From an uncultured Gammaproteobacteria bacterium (lineage in GTDB: Bacteria; Patescibacteriota; Patescibacteriia; Patescibacteriales; UBA12465): 64,000 nt of DNA. Both the position numbers and the translations under genes were made by a program. The DNA lies in contig CAZPKN010000002.1 in NCBI GenBank assembly GCA_964587195.1, forward strand, positions 772 to 64,771. The letters are read 5' to 3'. Positions 4,842 through 62,787 of the stretch are shown here, piece by piece; position 1 is the stretch's first letter; every line of letters starts with the position of its first letter. Under the pieces are notes generated by a model, which saw only the letters and a list, made by a program, of their open reading frames with translations, was not told the DNA's origin and ran no database searches.

Positions 4842-6083
4842 TTATTTTTTTTCTGCCTTAACCTTCTTTTCTTTCTTATCTTTTTTTACTTCTTCTGCGG
4901 CAGCCTCATCAACTGTCTCCTCGGAATCAGCTGATTTTTTAGTCTTAGTCGCTTTTTTTGGCTTTTCTTCGCCATCTTCAACTGATTTTGCTTTAGCGTC
5001 TCCGGCTAGTTTTAGGCCTAGGCGATGTTCAGACGGAGAAATACTAACGATTTCGAAATCTCTAATTTCATCAGCTTTATACAAATCAGAAATCTTATCT
5101 TTAGCGGCGATGTTAAGCAGACTGATATGGGCTAAACCATGAATTTCTTCATCGAGCTTAACAAATAGACCAAACGGATTAACTTTCAAAATAGTGCCGG
5201 CAACAGTCTGTCCAACTTGATATTTAGAGCTGGCCTCTAGCCATGGATCGACTAAGAGTTTTTTAGCGCTTAAGAAAACCTTAGCGCCATCGATAGAAAT
5301 TATTTCCGCCTTGATGCTATCGCCAACCTTATACATCTCGCTTGGGGAATCGATTCTTTGCCAAGCTAGCTCGGAAATATGAATTAAACCTTCGATATCT
5401 TCGCCAAAAGTTACAAAAACTCCAAAATTAGTAATGGCGGTAATCTTCCCATCAACTTGCGAGCCAATTTTGTATTTATCAAGAGCTGGTTTTTGACGCT
5501 TGTTCCAAACATCTTTCTCGCTGAAAATGATTTTGCCATCTTCTTCGCTTAAAGTAATAACGGCCACTTCAAATTCTTGTCCAACAAAAGATTTTAATTT
5601 TTCTAAAATTTTACTCTTATCGCCGCCGGAAATACGCGGATAATTTTCTGGAGCTAACTGAGAAACCGGCAAGAAGCCGTCGATTTGGCAATAACGGCTC
5701 AGTAAGCCACCCTTATTAGCGTCAGCAATTTTAACTTTAACCGTTGTTTTATCTTTATAAGCTTGGCGTAATTTAATCCAGGCTTTTTCTTGGCCGACTA
5801 AGCGGAAAGATAATTCTAATTGGCCTTTTTCATTTTCAACATCAATCACGGCCGCCTCGATTTCATCGCCCGGTTTTAAAGAAGCGAATTCTTCAACCTC
5901 ATTATAAAGTTCCGGGCCACGAACGATACCCATAGAAATACCATTGATATCCAGCATGACCTCAGACTTTGAGGCGCTAATGACCTTGCCTTTAACAATG
6001 TCGCCGATTTGCGGGACTTGAGTCTGGTCTTTATCGAGTAATTTAGCGAACTCACTAGAGTCCAAGTTTTTTTGATCTTCCAT
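4842..6083 (-). CDS. rpsA: 30S ribosomal protein S1 (four S1 domains, Lys-rich tail)
   Basis: Repeated S1/OB motifs (GDIVKGKV..., GQTVAGTILKVNPFGLFVKL). Confidence 0.85.
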   Translation of the reverse strand: MEDQKNLDSSEFAKLLDKDQTQVPQIGDIVKGKVISASKSEVMLDINGISMGIVRGPELYNEVEEFASLKPGDEIEAAVIDVENEKGQLELSFRLVGQEKAWIKLRQAYKDKTTVKVKIADANKGGLLSRYCQIDGFLPVSQLAPENYPRISGGDKSKILEKLKSFVGQEFEVAVITLSEEDGKIIFSEKDVWNKRQKPALDKYKIGSQVDGKITAITNFGVFVTFGEDIEGLIHISELAWQRIDSPSEMYKVGDSIKAEIISIDGAKVFLSAKKLLVDPWLEASSKYQVGQTVAGTILKVNPFGLFVKLDEEIHGLAHISLLNIAAKDKISDLYKADEIRDFEIVSISPSEHRLGLKLAGDAKAKSVEDGEEKPKKATKTKKSADSEETVDEAAAEEVKKDKKEKKVKAEKK

Positions 6084-9511: not shown

Positions 9512-9892
9512 TTATTTGGAAATATCCAGAGTGTTAATTAATATTTTGTTTTCTAACTCCAAAATATCAGCGTCTTGATTACAAAAATATCGATAACGTT
9601 TATTAAAATCTGCTTCGTTATCGGCTATAAATAGATTTTCAATATTTTTAGATAAAACTTTTATCCGGTTAAGGTCCAATTCCGGATTTTCTGACTCCAA
9701 GTCTAAAGAGGTGATTATTTCTGAAAGCGTTCTTAGCCAACGAAAATCATCGTGATTAACTACTAATTGAAAATACTCATGATTATTGGAAATCGGGCCA
9801 TTCTTTTTTTCATAAATCCCTCTTTCGAGGTCTAATAATCTCTTATGAAAATCTAACAAGAGTTTTATTAAACTGTTCAATTTTTCTTTCAT
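9512..9892 (-). CDS. hypothetical protein
   Basis: 126-aa ORF with no recognisable motif. Confidence 0.4.
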   Translation of the reverse strand: MKEKLNSLIKLLLDFHKRLLDLERGIYEKKNGPISNNHEYFQLVVNHDDFRWLRTLSEIITSLDLESENPELDLNRIKVLSKNIENLFIADNEADFNKRYRYFCNQDADILELENKILINTLDISK

Positions 9893-9956
9893 ATTTGGAG
9901 TGGTTAATAATTAATTTTTATATTTTAGGTTATTTTTTTAAAAAAGTAAAAAGGAT

Positions 9957-9987
9957 AAAAAGAACTAGTTAGGCTAGTTCTTTTTTG
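9957..9987 (-). terminator. hairpin + U-run terminator after the tRNA-like element
   Basis: Stem agaactag/ctagttct (9961-9968 / 9974-9981), flanked by A- and T-runs. Confidence 0.65.
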
Positions 9988-9990
9988 ATT

Positions 9991-10190
9991 TGGAGCGGGT
10001 AACGGGAACCTGCCTGCCGGCAGGCAGGTTCCGCGCTCGCTTTTCTTCCGAAAAGCTCACTTGTCCAGAGTTGGCGTCCGATATGCCCCCGGCATATCGT
10101 CCGACATTCGTCTGCATCCTCGCCGCTCAAAATAGCGGCTCGGATTTGACTCATTTCCAACTAGTTCGATTCCCGTAATTATCCAAACAA
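9991..10190 (-). ncRNA. unclassified GC-rich structured RNA or miniature element ending in a tRNA-Gly-like 3' end with CCA
   Basis: 9993-10008 is identical to 10228-10243, which is the reverse complement of the tRNA-Gly T-stem 3' half plus acceptor 3' strand. There are four strong hairpins. GC content is far above the surroundings. There is no credible ORF. Confidence 0.45.
10005..10032. repeat. perfect 28-nt GC-rich palindrome (ggaacctgcctgcc/ggcaggcaggttcc)
   Basis: Read directly from the sequence. The core 20-mer recurs at 62764-62783 with 2 substitutions. Confidence 0.9.
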
Positions 10191-10193
10191 AAC

Positions 10194-10223
10194 AAAAAGA
10201 GATAGCAATGCTATCTCTTTTTG
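10194..10223 (-). terminator. hairpin + U-run directly after tRNA-Gly
   Basis: Stem agagatagc/gctatctct (10198-10206 / 10210-10218), flanked by A- and T-runs. Confidence 0.65.
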
Positions 10224-10228
10224 TTTTG

Positions 10229-10300
10229 AGCGGGTAACGGGAATCGAACCCGTCTCTCGACCTTGGCAAGGTCGCATAATAACCACTATACGATACCCGC
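10229..10300 (-). tRNA. tRNA-Gly (anticodon GCC)
   Basis: Cloverleaf folded by hand. Acceptor gcgggta/tacccgc, anticodon loop ttGCCaa, T-loop ttcgatt. CCA is not encoded. Confidence 0.9.
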
Positions 10301-10319
10301 AATCTTACTTTACGTTGGG

Positions 10320-10403
10320 TGCCGCGGGCGGGAATCGAACCCGCACTGTATCGCTACAACTGGATTTTAAGTCCAGCGCGTCTACCAGTTCCGCCACCGC
10401 GGC
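10320..10403 (-). tRNA. tRNA-Leu (anticodon UAA)
   Basis: 84 nt with a long variable arm. Acceptor gccgcgg/ccgcggc, anticodon loop ctTAAaa. Confidence 0.9.
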
Positions 10404-10407
10404 ATTG

Positions 10408-10795
10408 TGGAGATGATGGGAGTTGAACCCATGTCCAACCGGTTTTCCTAAATACATTTACAAGGGTAGATCGATTTATTTTGTTTAACTTTAACCATCA
10501 AAAACCGAACGAAAAGCGATTAAAGCGATCTTAATTTTGTTTCGAAATAATCCGTTAAGCGCAAATTATTTCTATCTTCAGTTAAAATGACACCGACGAA
10601 CCGTTATGAAGACTGGCGGCTAGTCGATGGTTACAGCCTTATTTATTAGGCCATAACTGGAGCATAACTTGGGGTTGCCCAAGTGAAAGCTCTTGCCGTT
10701 TTGGCATTTGTGTTTTTTTAGCCAGTTTAACGTGATTAACTAAGCACGCCTTGAATACCTAGAAAAAGATCCGACTGTCGATGCCTAGCATCCCC
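10408..10795 (-). ncRNA. ssrA: tmRNA (SsrA)
   Basis: The 5' end is GGGGATGCTAGGCATCGACAGTCGGATC. The 3' tRNA-like end is GGACATGGGTTCAACTCCCATCATCTCCA. It lies 10 nt downstream of smpB. The candidate tag frame ends ...TPSYAPVMA with TAATAA. Confidence 0.9.
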
Positions 10796-10805
10796 AGATA
10801 ATTTT

Positions 10806-11267
10806 CTACTTACCTCTTTTTGTTAACGAGCGCAGGCGCCGATCGACCTCCCGTTTCTTAATAGTTTCACGCTTATCATATTTCTTTTTACCCTTGGCGA
10901 CGGCGAACTCCAGCTTCAGAAAACTATGATTAGTATATATTTTCAAAGGGATAAGTGTCAAGCCTTCGGTCAGTTTCTTTCCTAATAAATGGTCAATTTC
11001 CCGTCTTTTCAGAAGCAGCTTACGCTCTCTTAAAGGATTATAATTTGGTAGCGGACCGGCGTTTTTATAAGGCGGAATCTGGCAATTAATTAAATATAGT
11101 TCCGGCTTCCCGTTTTTTGTTCTAATGCTAATAAAACTTCCTTTTAAACTAGCTTGTCCGGCTTTAACCGCTTTAACCTCAAAACCAAGCAAAACCAAGC
11201 CCGCCTCGTATTTATCGCGGACCTCATAATCAAAATTAGCTTTTTTGTTGTTCGCTAGCGCCGGCAT
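10806..11267 (-). CDS. smpB: SsrA-binding protein SmpB
   Basis: NKKANFDYEV motif, basic C-terminal tail, adjacent tmRNA. Confidence 0.9.
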   Translation of the reverse strand: MPALANNKKANFDYEVRDKYEAGLVLLGFEVKAVKAGQASLKGSFISIRTKNGKPELYLINCQIPPYKNAGPLPNYNPLRERKLLLKRREIDHLLGKKLTEGLTLIPLKIYTNHSFLKLEFAVAKGKKKYDKRETIKKREVDRRLRSLTKRGK

Positions 11268-26746: not shown

Positions 26747-28339
26747 TTAAATCCCCTTTTCTAAATAAGTATTTTTTAATTTATAACCTTTCTTCTTATA
26801 GTATCCCCTCACTCCTACACCGGAGATAACGCTGATTTTTTTAGCGCCATTTTCTTTGGCTATTTTTTCAGCTAGCTTAATTAATTCTCTACCCAGGCCT
26901 CTATGCTGAGTCTTTCTCTCTCCTCCTATACTAACGAGTTCTCCGTAAACATGAAGCTCTCTAATAATAGCTGGCGAAACTGGGCTACTGAAATCTAAGC
27001 GTAAACGACAAAAACCAAATAAAGTTTTTTTATCCGGGCTGTCAGCGCTAATAAAATACTCTTGGCCACCAGAGGATGGATACTGTAAAACATTCAAATG
27101 ATAGTTATTAACCAACTTATCCTTTGCCTCACGGCAACGTATACAATTACACTTAACCCCCCTCTGCTGCATAACTTGGCGGAGGTTAGTAATTTTATTA
27201 CCGGCAATAATAGATTCTGAAGGAATGTCTCTGATTAAGCGAATAATTCTAACATAAGTTGGTACAAATGTTTTACAATCAACAATGAGTTTTTGTAAAG
27301 CTTTATCGGAATATGGTTTATATTTTCCTTGTCTATGCCACTCATACAATAAACTGCCTTGTGTTACAACGGTCGGATAGAATTTTATTTGGTCCGGCTG
27401 AAAGCGTTCATCAGAAAATAATTGTTTAAACATTTCTAAGTCGCGTTTTGGCGTCGCTCCTGGTAGAGCGGGCATTAAATGATAAGTAACTTTAAAACCA
27501 AATTGTTTTAAGGCTTTAGTAGCCGCGGCGATTTCATCAACTCCATGACCGCGCTTATTAAGCGCTAAAATTTTATCGTCTATCGCCTGAACGCCAATTT
27601 CCACACGTGTACAACCTAAATCGCGCATCTCGAGTAGCTCTTTATGGCTAATGTAATCTGGTCTAGTTTCAAGAGTAAGCCCAATAATTTGATATTTAGT
27701 GGTTTCATTTTTCTTCTGTTCAAGTTTTAAAAAATATTTTAACTTGTCCAGACCTAAATTTTTCGGATAGAAACTTTTTAACCCGCTTAACTTATCTTTA
27801 TTTTCATATTTTTTAAAATCATTAGCCGCTCTAAAGCAGTTTAAAATATACCAGTAGCGATATTTAATCGGCAGATAGCTCCAAGTCCCGCCAATCACAA
27901 TAATTTCTATTTTTGTTGGCTCATGCCCATTATTAACTAGGGTTTTAAGGCGATGAACTGTTTGAATATACGGATCGTAATCACAGCGAATAGCTCTCAT
28001 TACTGCTGGCTCATTAGACAAATAGCTGACCGGAACATCTTTTTCATGAGGGCAATAAGCACATTCTCCAGGGCAAGGATAAGACTTTGTTAAAACTGCG
28101 ACTGGCGCAATTCCCGATAAGGTTCGAATGCCGCGTTTACGGAGTAAACTCGCTAAAATTTCTGATGGAGCTATTTCTTTCTTATCTAAAAGCTGACGAT
28201 ATATTTTTAAAATATCCGCATTTAAAATAGAACCAACTTTAAATTGTTTACAGACCGCTCGTTTAGCAACTTCTAAGTCCTCGCGGCTTTTTATTTTCGA
28301 TCCGTATTTTTTTAATAAATATATGATTGCCTCCGACAT
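26747..28339 (-). CDS. elp3: Elp3-like radical SAM / GNAT acetyltransferase (tRNA U34 modification family)
   Basis: Radical-SAM cluster CPGECAYC (Cx3Cx2C) and a C-terminal GNAT motif HRGLGRELI. At 530 aa it is collinear with Elp3. Confidence 0.8.
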   Translation of the reverse strand: MSEAIIYLLKKYGSKIKSREDLEVAKRAVCKQFKVGSILNADILKIYRQLLDKKEIAPSEILASLLRKRGIRTLSGIAPVAVLTKSYPCPGECAYCPHEKDVPVSYLSNEPAVMRAIRCDYDPYIQTVHRLKTLVNNGHEPTKIEIIVIGGTWSYLPIKYRYWYILNCFRAANDFKKYENKDKLSGLKSFYPKNLGLDKLKYFLKLEQKKNETTKYQIIGLTLETRPDYISHKELLEMRDLGCTRVEIGVQAIDDKILALNKRGHGVDEIAAATKALKQFGFKVTYHLMPALPGATPKRDLEMFKQLFSDERFQPDQIKFYPTVVTQGSLLYEWHRQGKYKPYSDKALQKLIVDCKTFVPTYVRIIRLIRDIPSESIIAGNKITNLRQVMQQRGVKCNCIRCREAKDKLVNNYHLNVLQYPSSGGQEYFISADSPDKKTLFGFCRLRLDFSSPVSPAIIRELHVYGELVSIGGERKTQHRGLGRELIKLAEKIAKENGAKKISVISGVGVRGYYKKKGYKLKNTYLEKGI

Positions 28340-35554: not shown

Positions 35555-36037
35555 TTATATTTTTTCATTAAAATTATGAACCAAAAAATGACAATTCCAA
35601 CACAGCCAAACTAAATTACTAATATCATTATTCTTTCTATTGTGATCTTTATGATGAATTAGTAAGACTCTTCTATCCTTCATCCCACACAATACACATA
35701 AGGGGGTAACTTTATTTTCCTTCATTATTCTATGGTAAGTAAACTCCCCTCCGCGCCAATTAATATGTCTATTACCTATGTATTTTTTATTTCTCCAAAC
35801 CGTCTGACATGTTTTACTACAAAAAAATTTGCCACTTTTAGAATGTTTTAAGTCCTTTTGAGTCTTCCAAGCCTCCTTACCACACACATCACAGGCAATA
35901 AATTTACCAGTTTTTTGACCTTCATACTGACAAATAGTTGAACAAAATTTGCCATAACCCCTTTTTAATTGACTAGGCTTAGCATAAAACTCTTTACTAC
36001 AAATTTTACATTTAACGTTTGGCATATGTAATGCCAT
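35555..36037 (-). CDS. HNH endonuclease with two N-terminal zinc-ribbon repeats
   Basis: HHKDHNRKNNDISNLVWLCWNCH, plus duplicated C-x2-C...C-x3-C units. The ORF-track start at 36064 is a TTG, so I use the first ATG at 36037. Confidence 0.75.
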   Translation of the reverse strand: MALHMPNVKCKICSKEFYAKPSQLKRGYGKFCSTICQYEGQKTGKFIACDVCGKEAWKTQKDLKHSKSGKFFCSKTCQTVWRNKKYIGNRHINWRGGEFTYHRIMKENKVTPLCVLCGMKDRRVLLIHHKDHNRKNNDISNLVWLCWNCHFLVHNFNEKI

Positions 36038-36089
36038 TGTATTGTGAAACAACCCAGTTGTCAACCATTAACACATCAACCTTAAGACG

Positions 36090-40037: not shown

Positions 40038-41165
40038 CTATTGTCTAATCGGCATAACTATATAAAGATAACTATCATCTTTTTCTGGTCTAACCACACA
40101 AGGGGTCATATTATTTAAAACACTAAGGCGGACAAAGCTTCCCTCTATATTATTTAAACCATCAAGCAAATAACGATAATTAATAGTAACTTCATTATCA
40201 TCACCATTAACCTCGCATTCTAATTCAACTTGGCTCTCCCCGCTAGTCCCGGAAAATGACGAAACTAATAGTTTAGACTTAGAAAAGATAAGAGTAATAT
40301 CATTTATTCCCGCCTTAGAGAATAAAGCGGCCGCCTTAACCGCTCTAATCAACTCACCTCTTTCCACTAAAATATTAGTTTGGCTTTTACTAGGAATAAT
40401 CTGCTTATAATCAGGGTAGTGTCCGTTTATCAGACGAGAAATTAATTCAACAGAATCAAAAGTGAATAGTATTTGATTATCTGACAAATAAAAATTTATT
40501 TCCGCCGCTTGCCCATCAATCTCATCTTCAAAATTATTCAGAATTCTAAGTAATTCTTGAATGGTTTTAGCGGGAACAATAATTTTTTGTTCCTCATCCT
40601 TAAAACCATTTCTTTTTACCTTAATTTCCTTCTCCGCTAATCTGTAACTATCCGTTGCCGCTAAAAATAGTTGTTCACCAATAAAAGAAAACAATACTCC
40701 AGTTAGCTCAGCCCTGTTTTCACTACTAGAAACAGCAAACACTACACTATTTAAAGATTTTCTAAGCTCTTTAAGATTACAGGAAAAATAATTATCACGA
40801 GAAATACTAGGAATAAGGGGGTAGTCCTTAGCCGACTCCCCTTTTATTTTTGTTTTATAATTTCCACACTCAATACTAAGATCATCACCCTTTAAATCAA
40901 CTTTAACCTTTTCTCCACTACTTAATAATCCAATATATTCATTTATTAACTTAGAATCGACCGTAAACTCTCCCTCTTCCTCAACCTTACCCCTTATTTG
41001 ATGGTTTATACCTATTTCTAAGTTTGTGCTAATAAACTCTATCGTCGAAGACTTAGCTTTTATTAGGATATTATTTAGGATTGGTAAATTAATATTTTTA
41101 GAACTAACGTGTCCAGTGATGTTTAATCCTCTTTTCAAGTTTTCCTGCAGACTAATGAATTTCAT
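40038..41165 (-). CDS. dnaN: DNA polymerase III beta sliding clamp
   Basis: 375 aa, three-domain clamp length, located immediately downstream of dnaA. Confidence 0.85.
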   Translation of the reverse strand: MKFISLQENLKRGLNITGHVSSKNINLPILNNILIKAKSSTIEFISTNLEIGINHQIRGKVEEEGEFTVDSKLINEYIGLLSSGEKVKVDLKGDDLSIECGNYKTKIKGESAKDYPLIPSISRDNYFSCNLKELRKSLNSVVFAVSSSENRAELTGVLFSFIGEQLFLAATDSYRLAEKEIKVKRNGFKDEEQKIIVPAKTIQELLRILNNFEDEIDGQAAEINFYLSDNQILFTFDSVELISRLINGHYPDYKQIIPSKSQTNILVERGELIRAVKAAALFSKAGINDITLIFSKSKLLVSSFSGTSGESQVELECEVNGDDNEVTINYRYLLDGLNNIEGSFVRLSVLNNMTPCVVRPEKDDSYLYIVMPIRQ

Positions 41166-41218
41166 ATAGCTATTTTATTATATATTTATATATAAATAAT
41201 TAATAACAATAATAAGGG

Positions 41219-41227
41219 GGGTGGATA
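41219..41227. promoter_or_regulatory. DnaA box, 8/9 match (reverse complement TTATCCACC)
   Basis: ggtggataa read in the dnaA-dnaN spacer. Confidence 0.6.
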
Positions 41228-41416
41228 ACTACTATTTTATTGATATTTTTTAGTATTTACTGGGGTAAATAAGGGTTTCTCTGTTGAAAAAATTAGGGAT
41301 ACAAAAGGGAATAAATTTAATAACTTGTTGTTAACTTTATAATTATTTATTTTATTAACAAATCATTAAAAGTTTTACTTAGGATATTAACAATTTTATT
41401 AACAGTATTTGGCGGG

Positions 41417-41425
41417 CTTATCCAC
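41417..41425. promoter_or_regulatory. DnaA box, perfect TTATCCACA
   Basis: Read directly. It lies at the edge of the AT-rich dnaA-dnaN spacer. Confidence 0.75.
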
Positions 41426-41428
41426 AAA

Positions 41429-42838
41429 TTAATAAGAGCGGTTAAAAAGTTGGCGGATTGATTCAAGGTCTTGTTTCATTCTTTCGTTACCCTTTTCTTT
41501 TATCTCTTGATAAATTTTATTGTAGGCATGCATGGCGGTTGTGTGATCGCGGCCACCTAACTCATTTCCGATACTGGGGTAGGATGCATTTAATTCTTCT
41601 CTAATTAAATAAATAGCGATTTGTCTTGGTCCGACTAACTCTTTTTTGCGGCTTTCGCTGATTAATTCCTTAGAGCTGATATTGTAAAACTTAGCGACCG
41701 CTTCGATAATTTCTTTTGGTGTTAGGGATTTTGCTTGGATACTCGAAATATAATCCCCTAACACATCTTTAATGGTTTTTAAATTCGGCTCTATTTCTTT
41801 AAATTGGTGGAAGGCGATTACTTTAATAAGAGCCCCCTCTAGTTCTCTGATATTATTTTGAACGTGTTCGGCAATATAAGCTAATAATTCACGCTCTAAA
41901 TGAAAGTTCTTTTCATTAGCTTTTTTTTCTAAAATAGCAATTTTTGTTTCAATATCTGGTTTTCCGACATCAGCAACCATACCGGCCTCAAAGCGAGAGA
42001 CTAAACGCTTTTCGATGGCGGGAATTGATTTAGGCGCACGATCAGAGGTTAAGACTATTTGCTTATCGTTTTGGAGGAGTTCGTTGAAAGTATGAAAGAA
42101 TTCTTCTTGTGTTCCATCTTTACCGCCCATAAACTGAACATCATCTACTAATAATAGATCAACGTTGCGATAGAGATTTTTAAACTCCTTGGCTTTTCCA
42201 GTAGTTACGGCCTGAATGTAATTATTAGTGAATTTTTCACTAGTTGTATATAAGATTTTACCGTTTGTTTTAGCCACTTCATTACCAATCGCTTGTAAGA
42301 GATGGGTTTTACCTAAACCAACGCCACCATAAATAAAGAGGGGGTTATAAGCCCGTCCTAAATTATTAACAACTGCTAGACAAGCAGCGTGAGCTAGTTC
42401 GTTTCCCTTTCCAACAATAAAACTCTCAAAAACGTAACGAGGATTTAAACCATGTTTTCCGGGCGCAGCTGAATTATTATTATTTACTAGAGGTGAGGTT
42501 TTTGGTAAGACCGGCTTTTCTTCAATAGAAACACTATCATTAGCTGTTTCAGTCGGAGTATTAATTTGAAAAGTAGCCTGTGGTCCTTTCTTTAACTCTA
42601 TTTTATAAATTATTTCCTGAATTTTTTGTTTACTAACATTTTCTAAGGCGCTTAAAATATTTTTATGATATTTTTCCTCTAGCCATTTTTTAACAAACGC
42701 GTTCGGCACACAAATAACTACTCGTTCGTTTTCAAAAGAGGAAATAAAAGTATCCTTAAACCAGGTAATAAAGTTAGCCCGTGATAAGTTGAGTTCTATT
42801 TCTCCTAAAACAGCCTGCCAAACTTGTTCGTTATTCAT
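41429..42838 (-). CDS. dnaA: chromosomal replication initiator DnaA
   Basis: Walker A GGVGLGKTHL, DDVQFMGGK, and C-terminal DNA-binding RDHTTAMHAY. The start is moved to the ATG at 42838. Confidence 0.95.
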   Translation of the reverse strand: MNNEQVWQAVLGEIELNLSRANFITWFKDTFISSFENERVVICVPNAFVKKWLEEKYHKNILSALENVSKQKIQEIIYKIELKKGPQATFQINTPTETANDSVSIEEKPVLPKTSPLVNNNNSAAPGKHGLNPRYVFESFIVGKGNELAHAACLAVVNNLGRAYNPLFIYGGVGLGKTHLLQAIGNEVAKTNGKILYTTSEKFTNNYIQAVTTGKAKEFKNLYRNVDLLLVDDVQFMGGKDGTQEEFFHTFNELLQNDKQIVLTSDRAPKSIPAIEKRLVSRFEAGMVADVGKPDIETKIAILEKKANEKNFHLERELLAYIAEHVQNNIRELEGALIKVIAFHQFKEIEPNLKTIKDVLGDYISSIQAKSLTPKEIIEAVAKFYNISSKELISESRKKELVGPRQIAIYLIREELNASYPSIGNELGGRDHTTAMHAYNKIYQEIKEKGNERMKQDLESIRQLFNRSY

Positions 42839-42960
42839 AAGCAAGGGATTAATTTAAACAAAAAACCACATAAATTAAAAGCAGTTTTGCAATATTTCTA
42901 TTATATTAAATATAGTACTTATTAACAAGCCGAAGCATTGTTAAAAATATGTTAATAAAT

Positions 42961-42969
42961 AGTGGATAA
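42961..42969. promoter_or_regulatory. DnaA box, 8/9 match (reverse complement TTATCCACT)
   Basis: agtggataa between dnaA and rpmH. Confidence 0.6.
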
Positions 42970-43059
42970 TTATATTAGAGAGCTTTTTATTTAAATTGAC
43001 TTTAATAAATAAAGGTGTTATCCTTTCTAGCAGAATAGTAAATTAAAGAATATTTAGTT

Positions 43060-43197
43060 ATGCCCCAAAGAACTTATCAGCCAAGCAAGCGCCGGGCTAG
43101 TAAAAAACACGGATTTCTAAAGAGAATGTCAACCGCTACCGGTCGGGCCGTTCTTAAGAAACGCCGCGATAAAGGCCGTAAAACCCTATCCAAATAG
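43060..43197 (+). CDS. rpmH: 50S ribosomal protein L34
   Basis: Hand translation gives [45 protein letters not shown]. It is too short to appear in the ORF track. Confidence 0.9.
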
Positions 43198-43210
43198 TAA
43201 GCGAGTTTGC

Positions 43211-43552
43211 ATGTTAGATAAAAAAAATCGAATACGCCTTAATAAAGAGTTTGACCAGATTTTTAAAACTGGCCAATCTTTTTATGGTAAAGCTTTTGGC
43301 GTTAAGGTTATTAAGACCTCTAATGAAAAAACCCGCCTAGGACTGCTTGTTGGTACTAAAATTAGCAAAAAAGCTGTCGTTAGGAACAAAATAAAAAGAC
43401 AAATCAGAGAAATAGTCCGCGCAGAACTACCTTTGTTAAGGGGGTCGCATGATCTAGCAGTGATTGCCCTGCCTCTGTCGGCCGAAAGCGACTTTTCTTT
43501 TTTAAAGTCTGACTTACAGGCCGCTTTTAAAAAGCTAAGATTATATAGATAA
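43211..43552 (+). CDS. rnpA: ribonuclease P protein component
   Basis: Basic protein with an RNR-type motif [15 protein letters not shown]. It follows rpmH. Confidence 0.85.
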
Positions 43553-43553
43553 T

Positions 43554-43820
43554 ATGAATAGGTTTGGTACATTTTTATTTAATATTCCTAAAAAAGTTGT
43601 TATATTAATTATAAAATTTTACCAAAAAACCCTATCTTTTGATCACGGTCCGCTTAAAAATATCTATCCCCATGGCTTTTGTCGTTTTTATCCAAGTTGT
43701 TCGGAATATGGGATTCAAGCCTTTGAGAAATATGGAGTTATTAAGGGAGGAATTTTAACTATTTGGAGAATTTTGAGGTGTAATCCTTGGAATAAAGGGG
43801 GAAATGATCCATTAAAATAA
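43554..43820 (+). CDS. yidD: membrane protein insertion efficiency factor YidD
   Basis: [11 protein letters not shown] motif. Confidence 0.85.
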
Positions 43821-43842
43821 GTTTAATATAAGTTAAATATAT

Positions 43843-44592
43843 ATGGGCAATTTTTTTACAGCCATTTTTTATCAGCCGATTCTTAACCTTTTGGTTTTCT
43901 TATATAATACGGTTTCTTTTCAGGATTTAGGAGTCGCTATTATTCTCTTAACGGTTATTATTAAGGCGATTCTCTGGCCTTTTGGTAAACAATCAATTAA
44001 ATCTCAAAAAGCCCTTCAAGAGCTCCAGCCGAAACTTGATGAATTGAAGAAACAATACGGCGACGACAAGGTCGGTTTAAGTCGGGCGACCATGGATTTA
44101 TATAAAGAAAGTAAGATCAATCCCCTTTCTTCTTGTTTTCCTCTTTTAATTCAACTCCCGTTTCTATTTGCAGTTTATCGAGTATTTAGAGATGGACTAA
44201 ATAATAAGTTAGATTTAGTTTATTCCTTCATCCATAAGCCGGAAGTTATCCAAGGAATGTTTTTAGGATTCTTAGATCTTAATAAGCCAAATATTTATTT
44301 AGCAGTTTTAGCCGGTCTAGCTCAGTTTTGGCAGGCAAAAATGATGTCGACTAAAAAACCGGTTATAAAAACAGACGGTTCAAAGGACGAAAGTATGACG
44401 GCTATTATGAATAAGCAGATGTTATACTTTATGCCGGCGATTACTGTTTTTATTGGAGCCTCTTTGCCGGGCGGCTTAACTCTTTATTGGTTTATAATTA
44501 CGCTTTTAACTGCTCTGCAACAAGTACTTATTTTTAAGAATATTGATAAAAACAAGAAAGAAGTAAAGACTGTTGAAGGAGAAATTATTTAA
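43843..44592 (+). CDS. yidC: membrane protein insertase YidC (short form)
   Basis: Conserved C-terminal TM region LPGGLTLYWFIITLLTALQQ. Confidence 0.85.
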   Translation: MGNFFTAIFYQPILNLLVFLYNTVSFQDLGVAIILLTVIIKAILWPFGKQSIKSQKALQELQPKLDELKKQYGDDKVGLSRATMDLYKESKINPLSSCFPLLIQLPFLFAVYRVFRDGLNNKLDLVYSFIHKPEVIQGMFLGFLDLNKPNIYLAVLAGLAQFWQAKMMSTKKPVIKTDGSKDESMTAIMNKQMLYFMPAITVFIGASLPGGLTLYWFIITLLTALQQVLIFKNIDKNKKEVKTVEGEII

Positions 44593-62760: not shown

Positions 62761-62787
62761 ACGCCTGCCCGCCGGTAGGCAGGGCGT
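62761..62787. repeat. GC-rich imperfect palindrome (acgcctgcccgccggtaggcagggcgt) 7 nt 3' of tRNA-Pro(GGG)
   Basis: The core at 62764-62783 matches 10009-10028 at 18 of 20 positions. Confidence 0.85.

Follow-up and report, generated by a model that had tools for sequence, protein, structure and literature searches.

Within a 64,000-nucleotide stretch of contig CAZPKN010000002.1 (assembly GCA_964587195.1), referred to here in its whole length as the window, the interval 10243..9991 of the minus strand was found to belong to a large, uncatalogued and protein-less family of insertions at the 3′ ends of tRNA and transfer-messenger RNA (tmRNA) genes in Patescibacteria. As judged from the alignment of its copies, the family shares a fold that is conserved in both sequence and structure and is under selection. 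With moderate confidence, we take the unit to be a non-autonomous site-specific insertion cassette, whose folded module would be the targeting and recombination site for an enzyme supplied in trans.

An insertion family behind tRNA and tmRNA genes

The minus strand of the window carries, in this order, smpB (11267..10806), the tmRNA gene (10795..10405; Rfam, 145 bits), tRNA-Leu(UAA) and tRNA-Gly(GCC) (10300..10228). The last of these is the functional glycine tRNA gene (ARAGORN call, sequence, and 60 bits with the Rfam tRNA model), and its final 16 nt (10243..10228) form the proximal copy of a repeat. The repeat, GAGCGGGTAACGGGAA, was found exactly twice in the 64 kb, at 9993-10008 and 10228-10243, compared to approximately 0.01 expected by chance. 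The functional gene continues with CAA, not CCA, whereas the distal repeat UUCCCGUUACCCGCUC (9991..10008, minus strand; tRNA positions 59-73 plus one base) is followed by CA, which completes a CCA at 9993-9991. A trailer and an 18-bp A-tract/hairpin/U-tract, the first terminator-like hairpin, follow the proximal copy (10189..10227, minus strand; fold and inverted repeat), and a second hairpin terminator follows the distal copy (9957..9985, minus strand; terminator scan and fold). This second terminator was probably the original terminator of the smpB-ssrA-tRNA operon.

Much of this had been noticed in an earlier reading of the letters alone (the sequence-only reading). Both positions of the 16-nt repeat were borne out, as were its assignment to the end of tRNA-Gly(GCC) on the minus strand and the presence of an encoded CCA on the duplicate and not on the real gene. 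The flanks of the two copies had been called alike, and a similarity is present, although it amounts to only about 70%. The hairpin and T-run placed after each repeat copy were recovered from inverted repeats, from the fold and from a terminator scan. The core, described there as GC-rich and without a sensible open reading frame (ORF), has a GC content of 57% compared to 37% for the window, and only short overlapping frames of 47-81 amino acids (aa), with no plausible gene, run across the element. The minimum-free-energy fold of the whole interval had a z score of -11 against shuffles and contained all three hairpins that had been listed. It had also been stated that the interval is not a normal tRNA; neither ARAGORN nor Rfam called a tRNA or tmRNA within 9991-10227, apart from one spurious permuted tmRNA, and a test for a minihelix with both acceptor strands failed. 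The permuted tmRNA call of ARAGORN (9878-10500) is an artefact that was triggered by the duplicated tRNA-like 3′ end and spans the real tRNAs and the element. The Rfam scans, which had been recommended as well, returned only tRNA, tmRNA and rRNA, together with hairpin noise.

Related loci were compared by taking 80 loci around SmpB relatives, and the order smpB-tmRNA-tRNA-Leu-tRNA-Gly was kept in the closest approximately 25 of them. Homologues of the element were present 40-60 nt behind tRNA-Gly and its terminator in 6 of approximately 22 related genomes (loci L007, L008, L009, L013, L014 and L028), while the tRNA-Gly site was empty in approximately 15 other relatives. In L001, L012 and L025, a tyrosine-integrase island occupied the same tRNA-Gly instead of the element. 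The comparison of orthologous smpB-ssrA-tRNA loci that had been proposed as a check gave a patchy picture, with filled and empty sites among relatives.

Metagenome copies were collected with a three-block DNA pattern built from conserved positions, followed by a profile search, and the figures given for them hold among the matches listed. At least 77 further true copies were found in at least 62 metagenome contigs, with up to three per contig; two or three copies per contig occurred in 14 loci, and all copies are protein-less. The copies sit 40-60 nt downstream of a tRNA and always on the same strand as it. The tRNAs used are Gly(GCC), Ala(CGC), Ser(GCU/UGA/GGA), Leu(CAA), Val(UAC), Glu(UUC/CUC), Gln(UUG/CUG), Asp, Cys and His, at least 13 identities in all, and in L028 the gene upstream of the element is tmRNA. 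The whole unit is approximately 215-235 bp long, the window insert being approximately 235 bp. The covariance model R1 recovered the copies in related genomes too, and in the window it found a single copy at full length (117.8 bits, E = 8e-37). Decayed copies without the 3′ tail persist in L007 and L028. In L028, two such copies without the 3′ repeat lie between tmRNA and tRNA-Leu (4943-5314), and their arm GGGGAATTGAAC matches the tmRNA T-loop GTTCAATTCCC.

Searches of catalogues were negative. Rfam gave no match for the window copy at E <= 10 or for ten other members at E <= 1, and a search at the gathering threshold gave the same result. BLAST of the core found no match in the phage or plasmid collections. 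Among viral contigs, a strict two-block pattern produced two matches, both of them chance matches inside GC-rich coding sequence, and a loose pattern produced more than 120 chance matches and was uninformative.

These findings bear on what the sequence-only reading had offered as interpretations. Its miniature element inserted at the tRNA-Gly 3′ end with attachment (att)-like repeats is supported and can be extended to a large family that uses many tRNAs, with empty sites in related genomes. A decaying second tRNA-Gly, which would have made the interval a pseudogene, is excluded by the occurrence of the same core behind at least 13 tRNA identities. A dead remnant in the wider sense would be either such a decayed gene or the scar of a deleted integrase island, its hairpins being fortuitous. 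Displaced tRNA 3′ ends are the normal scar of integrase islands, and tyrosine-integrase islands do occur at the same tRNA-Gly in L001, L012 and L025; however, profile and covariance-model searches found no core in these islands, every helix of the core has compensatory changes across its many tRNA hosts, and the window copy scores 117.8 bits over its full length. We consider a remnant extremely improbable. No cognate autonomous element was found among the loci, which are a few kb long. The integrase genes in L001, L012 and L025 lie on the reverse strand, approximately 100-400 nt after tRNA-Gly, and carry the motif ...LGHSDIATTMRYAH...

Conserved fold of the core

A total of 66 distinct copies was aligned with MAFFT (alignment A2), a structure was derived with RNAalifold and a pair-count test was applied. 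The tested structure had 47 pairs in 7 helices. In the alignment 89.7% of the cells were paired compared to 73.0 +/- 0.5% in shuffles, and none of 500 shuffles reached the observed value. Changes on both sides were found in 39 of the 47 pairs, and the covariation score was 0.458, compared to 0.174 in shuffled alignments and at most 0.123 in slid registers. The covariation check that the sequence-only reading had called for thus gave a score far above the shuffles.

The conserved folded core is a five-helix module of approximately 130 nt (10029..10163, minus strand; alignment A2, covariation and covariance model). All of its parts are on the minus strand. P1 is formed by the 5′ arm paired with the start of the 3′ tRNA copy, and the distal repeat (9991..10008) thus doubles as the 3′ strand of this helix. 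P2 (10162-10157 with 10074-10069) closes a junction that holds P3, a long GA-rich hairpin with a GGAA-type tip (approximately 10154-10104), and P4, a simple hairpin (10105-10075). The invariant joiner CUGGACAAGU (10068-10059) stands ahead of P5 (10060-10035), a hairpin with a GGAA loop and a conserved U.G pair that was kept in 62 of 66 copies, and the 3′ block GCGAGCGCGGAA (10040-10029) ends the core. Unpaired blocks are conserved as well, namely CGAAC-NRG, GAAGCGAG, GAGCG(U/A)CG and GCGAGCGCGA.

The consensus folded better on the tRNA-sense strand (-82 kcal/mol) than on the opposite one (-72 kcal/mol), and the counts of G.U versus A.C favoured the tRNA-sense strand in P5 (73:3) and P1 (43:22). 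The folded module could be RNA or folded single-stranded DNA, and the evidence fits both alike.

A 20-nt GC palindrome, CCTGCCTGCCGGCAGGCAGG (10009..10028, no strand assigned), interrupts this arrangement in the window. It is absent from most family members and, on that comparison, is a secondary insertion into the window copy. Together with the flanking GGAA/TTCC it makes up the perfect 28-nt palindrome at 10005-10032 of the sequence-only reading, which was confirmed. The same palindrome was found at four different positions in at least eight other copies (L209, L254, L268, L272, L274, L304, L305 and L322), usually after GGAA or AATC, and this distribution suggests a very small palindromic insert that is independent of the element. 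A similar GC hairpin, ACGCCCTGCCTACCGGCGGGCAGGCGT, which matches CCTGCCTGCCGGCAGGCAGG at 18 of 20 positions, lies just 3′ of tRNA-Pro(GGG) in the window (62764-62783) with no core nearby.

Target-complementary arm and displaced tRNA ends

Behind each tRNA, the parts follow in the order A-tract/hairpin/T-tract, spacer of 10-14 nt, 5′ arm, core and copy of the tRNA 3′ end. In the window, the spacer, which in the upstream listings is not conserved across copies, occupies 10177..10188 and the 5′ "anti-T" arm, ACGGGAAUCGAAC, occupies 10164..10176, both on the minus strand. This arm is the 13-nt inverted copy of the T-loop and T-stem that the sequence-only reading had described. It was confirmed as an inverted repeat and is the exact complement of tRNA-Gly positions 53-65 (T-loop and 3′ T-stem strand), and with its 5′ part it provides, opposite the distal repeat, one strand of P1. 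Across copies the arm is 9-15 nt long and complementary to the T-loop of the copy's own tRNA. Among the matches listed, 36 of 43 tRNA-adjacent copies had at least 9 consecutive nt exactly complementary to the 3′ region of the cognate tRNA, and 34 of 43 had a copy of the cognate tRNA 3′ end, 16-29 nt long. This 3′ copy starts at position 58/59 and is most often exactly 17 nt long, from position 58 to the discriminator.

The arm also tracks T-loop variants that lie outside the repeat. GTCCGA occurs with TCGGAC (L294, L028 and L276) and TTCAA with TTGAA (L211, L238 and the tmRNA copies), and GAGT, GACT and GAGC loops are likewise matched by complementary arms. At P1 column 14/252, the pairs were UA in 32 copies, AU in 16 and CG in 4. 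The complementary stretch mainly covers positions 53-63 and stops short of the acceptor strand: when the 7 nt upstream of the arm were compared with the complement of positions 66-72, 1.9 of 7 matched for cognate and 1.7 of 7 for non-cognate tRNAs. An origin of the 5′ arm by fold-back, that is, by inverted duplication through the terminator, was rejected on the same acceptor-strand match of only 1.9 versus 1.7 of 7. A variant 5′ arm, GGGATGAGAAC, which is not complementary to a normal T-loop, was seen in four separate loci (L204, L249 at 4873, L308, and L313 at 1326).

The order of guide, core and 3′ exon copy resembles that of an intron. In an intron-like or trans-acting ribozyme, the arm would be an internal guide that aligns positions 53-57, the end of the 5′ exon, with positions 58-63, the start of the 3′ exon; the core would join tRNA(1-57) to the distal 58-73(+CCA), and insertions in T-loops would be harmless, as in IStrons. 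The architecture of group I introns, with its P10/P1 order, was used for the comparison. The guide spans the junction in that same 5′-to-3′ order, and the distal copy of the window would restore an encoded CCA. However, the core is only approximately 130 nt long and had no match to group I or group II introns in Rfam even at E <= 10, no G is conserved ahead of the 3′ junction, where the copies read ...GCGCGA(A/U)A, and the putative 5′ site has no G.U. Moreover, the upstream tRNA is already complete and terminated, which makes splicing unnecessary, and in arrays kilobases of cargo part some copies from any tRNA 5′ part. A ribozyme is therefore very unlikely, although Patescibacteria are rich in tRNA group I introns (PMC13011429).

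The origin of the distal repeat could be followed in relatives. Beyond its distal repeat, L309 carries a sequence (GCTCCATATGGGGGGATTTATAAAT...CCTTCCAAATTGGAGGGCTTTTGTAATT) whose orthologue flanks tRNA-Gly at the empty site of L010. Terminators like the distal one of L250 stand at the empty sites L001, L003 and L011, and L286 has as its distal flank the sequence that forms the proximal module in L272. These matches indicate that new units enter beside the tRNA and move older material away from it. By sequence comparison, what relatives have as distal repeat and flank is thus the original host sequence, with the original tRNA 3′ end (positions 58-73) still joined to its original trailer and terminator. 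A new tRNA 3′ end, complete with a hairpin terminator, is brought in by the insert. Between the window and L267, the proximal trailer, hairpin and spacer hardly differ, and because the two share this module, the first terminator-like hairpin of the window appears to have come with the insert.

The same comparison extends to the CCA. Among empty sites, the tRNA-Gly genes of L006, L010, L015, L019 and L025 encode CCA. Distal copies with CCA were found in the window, L250, L267 and L309, and the rebuilt genes there are without it. Most family copies continue with other bases after the repeat, and CCA occurs where the displaced tRNA-Gly gene encoded CCA. By analogy with these loci, the CCA-bearing duplicate of the window is most likely the displaced original end of tRNA-Gly, which accounts for the most puzzling detail of the sequence-only reading.

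Units also accumulate. Two near-identical units stand in tandem in L215, different core subtypes stand in tandem in L211 and L286, and in L249, L292 and L322 three units with ORFs between them stand behind tRNA-Gln. In L204, L249, L258 and L322, cargo ORFs close to copies or lying between them code for a phosphoenolpyruvate (PEP)-utilizer domain protein, a nucleotidyltransferase, and Fic and RhuM-Fic proteins. Where cargo is present, a degenerate tRNA-3′-like sequence precedes the hairpin, such as the "pseudo tRNA 3′ end" CGTTCCAACTACGTCCCACCCTCTCCGC. Other T-loop junction types, for example GGAGCTC joined to TTCGATTCCCG, were seen upstream of copies in L264, L265, L300, L313, L249, L292 and L322, and in L309 at approximately 1000-960. 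These junction types and the pseudo tRNA 3′ ends suggest that further cassette or island families use the same sites.

Core subtypes are distributed over different tRNA identities. Among the matches listed, the nearest core in another contig stood at a different tRNA in 29 of 47 cases. In L267 (Gly) and L286 (Glu), which come from one metagenome, the sequence from GAGAATCGAAC to GCGCGAAGTTCCC is identical save for one base and the flanks are unrelated, indicating that the block of arm plus core moves or is homogenised independently of the rebuilt tRNA end. In L215, the hairpin loop is inverted between the tandem units (2262-2320 versus 2476-2534; TTTG versus CAAAG) with identical stems, a sign of hairpin or cruciform processing or of template switching.

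A host or cargo noncoding RNA with a tRNA-related role, transcribed by read-through from the tRNA operon, would give the same repeats a different meaning: they would serve RNA function and would not be scars. The 5′ arm would then pair with the T-arm of the tRNA or pre-tRNA and the 3′ tail would mimic the tRNA 3′ strand, possibly in processing or quality control, as a decoy for tRNA-targeting nucleases or as a sensor. The strong covariation, the conserved single-stranded blocks, the GNRA-type GGAA loops and the conserved U.G pair would suit such an RNA. So would the tracking of T-loop positions 53-57 by the arm, which have no partner inside the element, the persistence of an intact distal 58-73 copy in 34 of 43 copies even where the neighbouring sequence differs, and the constant co-orientation with the tRNA with a terminator after the element. 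In contrast, a strong hairpin terminator, with its long hairpin and U-tract, stands between the tRNA and the fold, a promoter scan was at chance level, and inspection by eye of the upstream listings revealed no conserved promoter ahead of the arm. The patchy presence in close relatives, the equality of empty-site and distal flanks, the tandem and mixed-subtype arrays with cargo genes and the decayed tail-less copies in L007 and L028 also speak against it, and the CCA is not conserved. We therefore regard a host RNA as unlikely. The undescribed CCA-tailed stable RNA of the sequence-only reading stands in part: the fold is conserved with compensatory changes and has no Rfam family, but the CCA is no feature of the family.

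For the insertion cassette that we favour, the following mechanism is proposed. The folded module would act in cis as the site of targeting and recombination and would not be a gene for a host RNA. At positions 53-63 of the target, the 5′ arm could base-pair with the sense strand, and the 3′ segment, having the sequence of positions 58-73, could do so with the opposite strand; the two would bracket the junction on both strands, overlap there and, in the free form, pair together as P1. Recombination at the tRNA 3′ end would be carried out by an enzyme encoded elsewhere in the genome, and the module that it uses could be RNA or lagging-strand template DNA folded in single-stranded form. New units are added beside the tRNA, as the flanks show, and this gives rise to arrays, some with cargo genes between the units. 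The expected empty-site junction would read ...GGTTCGATTCCCGTTACCCGCTCCAAATCAAAAAAG, and the expected circle junction would consist of ...GCGAGCGCGGAA, the palindrome and TTCCCGTTACCCGCTCAAAACAAAAAG. Natural transformation, and recombination with the conserved operon as its anchor, may also help the units to pass from genome to genome. In the window, dnaN and dnaA, on the minus strand, stand opposite rnpA and yidC, on the plus strand (40038-44592), which makes an origin of replication near 43 kb probable. Replication from this dnaA/dnaN region runs in the same direction as the element, and the sense strand of the element would thus be the lagging-strand template. A bolder version holds that the fold is a guide by which a gene-less cassette programmes its own insertion at tRNA T-loops, an unlinked recombinase exchanging the strands and rebuilding the tRNA. 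It is put forward tentatively, as a possible but rather doubtful extension.

Several observations weigh against the cassette. None of 424 ORFs within 3 kb of copies had tyrosine-recombinase motifs, and clustering of them revealed no recurring protein family. In 40 window ORFs of at least 110 aa that were searched against Pfam, there was no match to a recombinase, a transposase, a reverse transcriptase or a Cas-like protein. From the window's own species, neither an excised form nor an empty allele was recovered. The cores of L267 and L286, 99% identical beside unrelated left modules, would be explained by gene conversion as well as by transposition, as far as their sequences tell. The G.U versus A.C counts did not favour the sense strand in P3 (13:39) and P4 (17:21), and with these mixed counts the sense-strand assignment is probable and not certain. 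To our knowledge, a multi-helix core conserved in sequence exceeds what any known att site needs. Finally, the cassette model does not account for the way in which a new copy gains its tRNA-specific rebuilt 3′ end. In two assemblies, contigs from the same species break off precisely at the repeat, an ambiguous sign of mobility that was not counted as evidence, since a tRNA-Gly of identical sequence is present in other species of the sample.

Relation to known systems and neighbouring features

The element is of a known kind in that it is a site-specific insertion at tRNA 3′ ends, and it has features without a described counterpart. As in tRNA and tmRNA islands, prophages and the cis-mobilizable elements (CIMEs) that derive from them and lack the integrase, the element rebuilds the tRNA, the displaced 3′ end persists as a direct repeat that begins in the T-loop, tmRNA can serve as a site too, empty sites occur in relatives, and successive units accumulate beside the tRNA by tandem accretion. 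Att-like repeats, multiple copies and the lack of mobility genes are shared with CIMEs and with elements of the type of miniature inverted-repeat transposable elements (MITEs). In contrast to the islands and CIMEs, no integrase is present in or near more than 60 copies, the unit is only approximately 215-235 bp long, its sole content is a conserved multi-helix fold with a target-complementary arm, and one core family serves many tRNAs.

In CTX-phi-type elements a host recombinase acts on a folded single-stranded DNA site, and integron cassettes use a folded single-stranded attC. Like these, the present units form co-oriented arrays, have a structured site at the 3′ end of the unit and do not contain the enzyme, and as in integron cassettes some have ORFs and many have none, and the structure-forming strand would be the lagging-strand template. 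They differ from attC in that no IntI-like ORF is nearby, the RYYYAAC/GTTRRRY boxes are absent (..ATCGAAC and GTTCGAT are read instead), the sequence itself is conserved, the repeat is 16-17 nt long, and the fold is a five-helix multi-branch structure and not a single bulged hairpin.

The bridge RNA of the insertion sequence (IS) IS110 is a noncoding RNA in the non-coding end of a recombinase-bearing element with a 2-nt core (Durrant et al. 2024, PMC11208160). The likeness lies in a structured nucleic acid of approximately 170 nt with segments that covary with the target and that, as in the target-binding loop (PMC11208160), can pair with opposite target strands and overlap at the junction. 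However, no DEDD or serine recombinase ORF is present, the guides are at the two ends (P1) and not in two internal loops, the duplication is 16-17 nt compared to the 2-nt core (PMC11208160), no donor-binding loop was identified, and an RNA from the present element is putative. Because the element lacks both a linked enzyme and the box motifs and its repeat is 16-17 nt long, it does not belong to the bridge-RNA or the integron/CTX-phi families.

The guide RNAs of IS200/IS605 elements (TnpB/IscB omega RNAs) and the protein-less derivatives of these elements, palindrome-associated transposable elements (PATEs) and MITEs, likewise have a scaffold followed by approximately 16 nt identical to the flanking target and occur as small non-autonomous copies, and the near-universal T-loop TTCGA could serve as a target-adjacent motif (TAM). 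In IStrons, a ribozyme and a guide together make insertions harmless. The present units have no TnpA, TnpB or IscB gene and no Rfam match to HEARO or IS605-type motifs, and IS200/IS605 elements, unlike them, make no target duplication and do not rebuild the target.

Patescibacteria tRNA group I introns interrupt the gene in the anticodon loop (positions 35/36 and others) (Nakagawa et al. 2026, PMC13011429). They share with the element the phylum, the association with tRNA, a structured nature, the lack of a protein gene and a junction-spanning guide-like arm, but the element stands behind a complete tRNA, has no group I core and has no match to RF00028. The element was not described in the full-text literature searched, in which this report on a different element (PMC13011429) was the nearest.

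The findings describe a widespread structured nucleic-acid family, probably with hundreds of copies or more, in a phylum of tiny genomes, in which each conserved 200 bp is likely to be under selection. The family accounts for a recurrent annotation puzzle, namely why tRNA 3′ ends are duplicated, why permuted tmRNAs are wrongly called and why GC-rich islands lie behind tRNA genes. It also presents tRNA 3′ ends as accretion sites for gene-less and cargo cassettes, a route of gene gain where mobile DNA is thought to be scarce. If the arms are used for recognition, they would be a compact, naturally multi-target guide for site-specific insertion. If guided recombination were true, it would be a new class of nucleic-acid-guided site-specific integration, conceptually parallel to the IS110 bridge RNAs, with guide and enzyme unlinked and cassettes accumulating as in an integron.

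Elsewhere in the window, Pfam searches identified RNase III and RecQ, and also DprA together with a type II/IV secretion-family ATPase and a type IV secretion pilin-family protein; these last three count as host context in favour of the cassette. A free-standing HNH endonuclease ORF of 169 aa lies at 35555-36064 (minus strand) between tRNA-Arg(UCU) and tRNA-His(GUG), and scored 22.2 bits with the Pfam HNH model against a cut-off of 21.4. The ORF at 26747-28339 (minus strand) combines radical-SAM and GNAT acetyltransferase domains, an Elp3-like architecture; Elp3-like enzymes take part in tRNA wobble-uridine modification in other organisms. The 11 tRNA and tmRNA genes called by ARAGORN in the window are all on the minus strand. 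Among the tRNA genes, CCA is encoded solely by tRNA-Pro(CGG) and the other nine are without it, so that CCA addition must be enzymatic in this organism.

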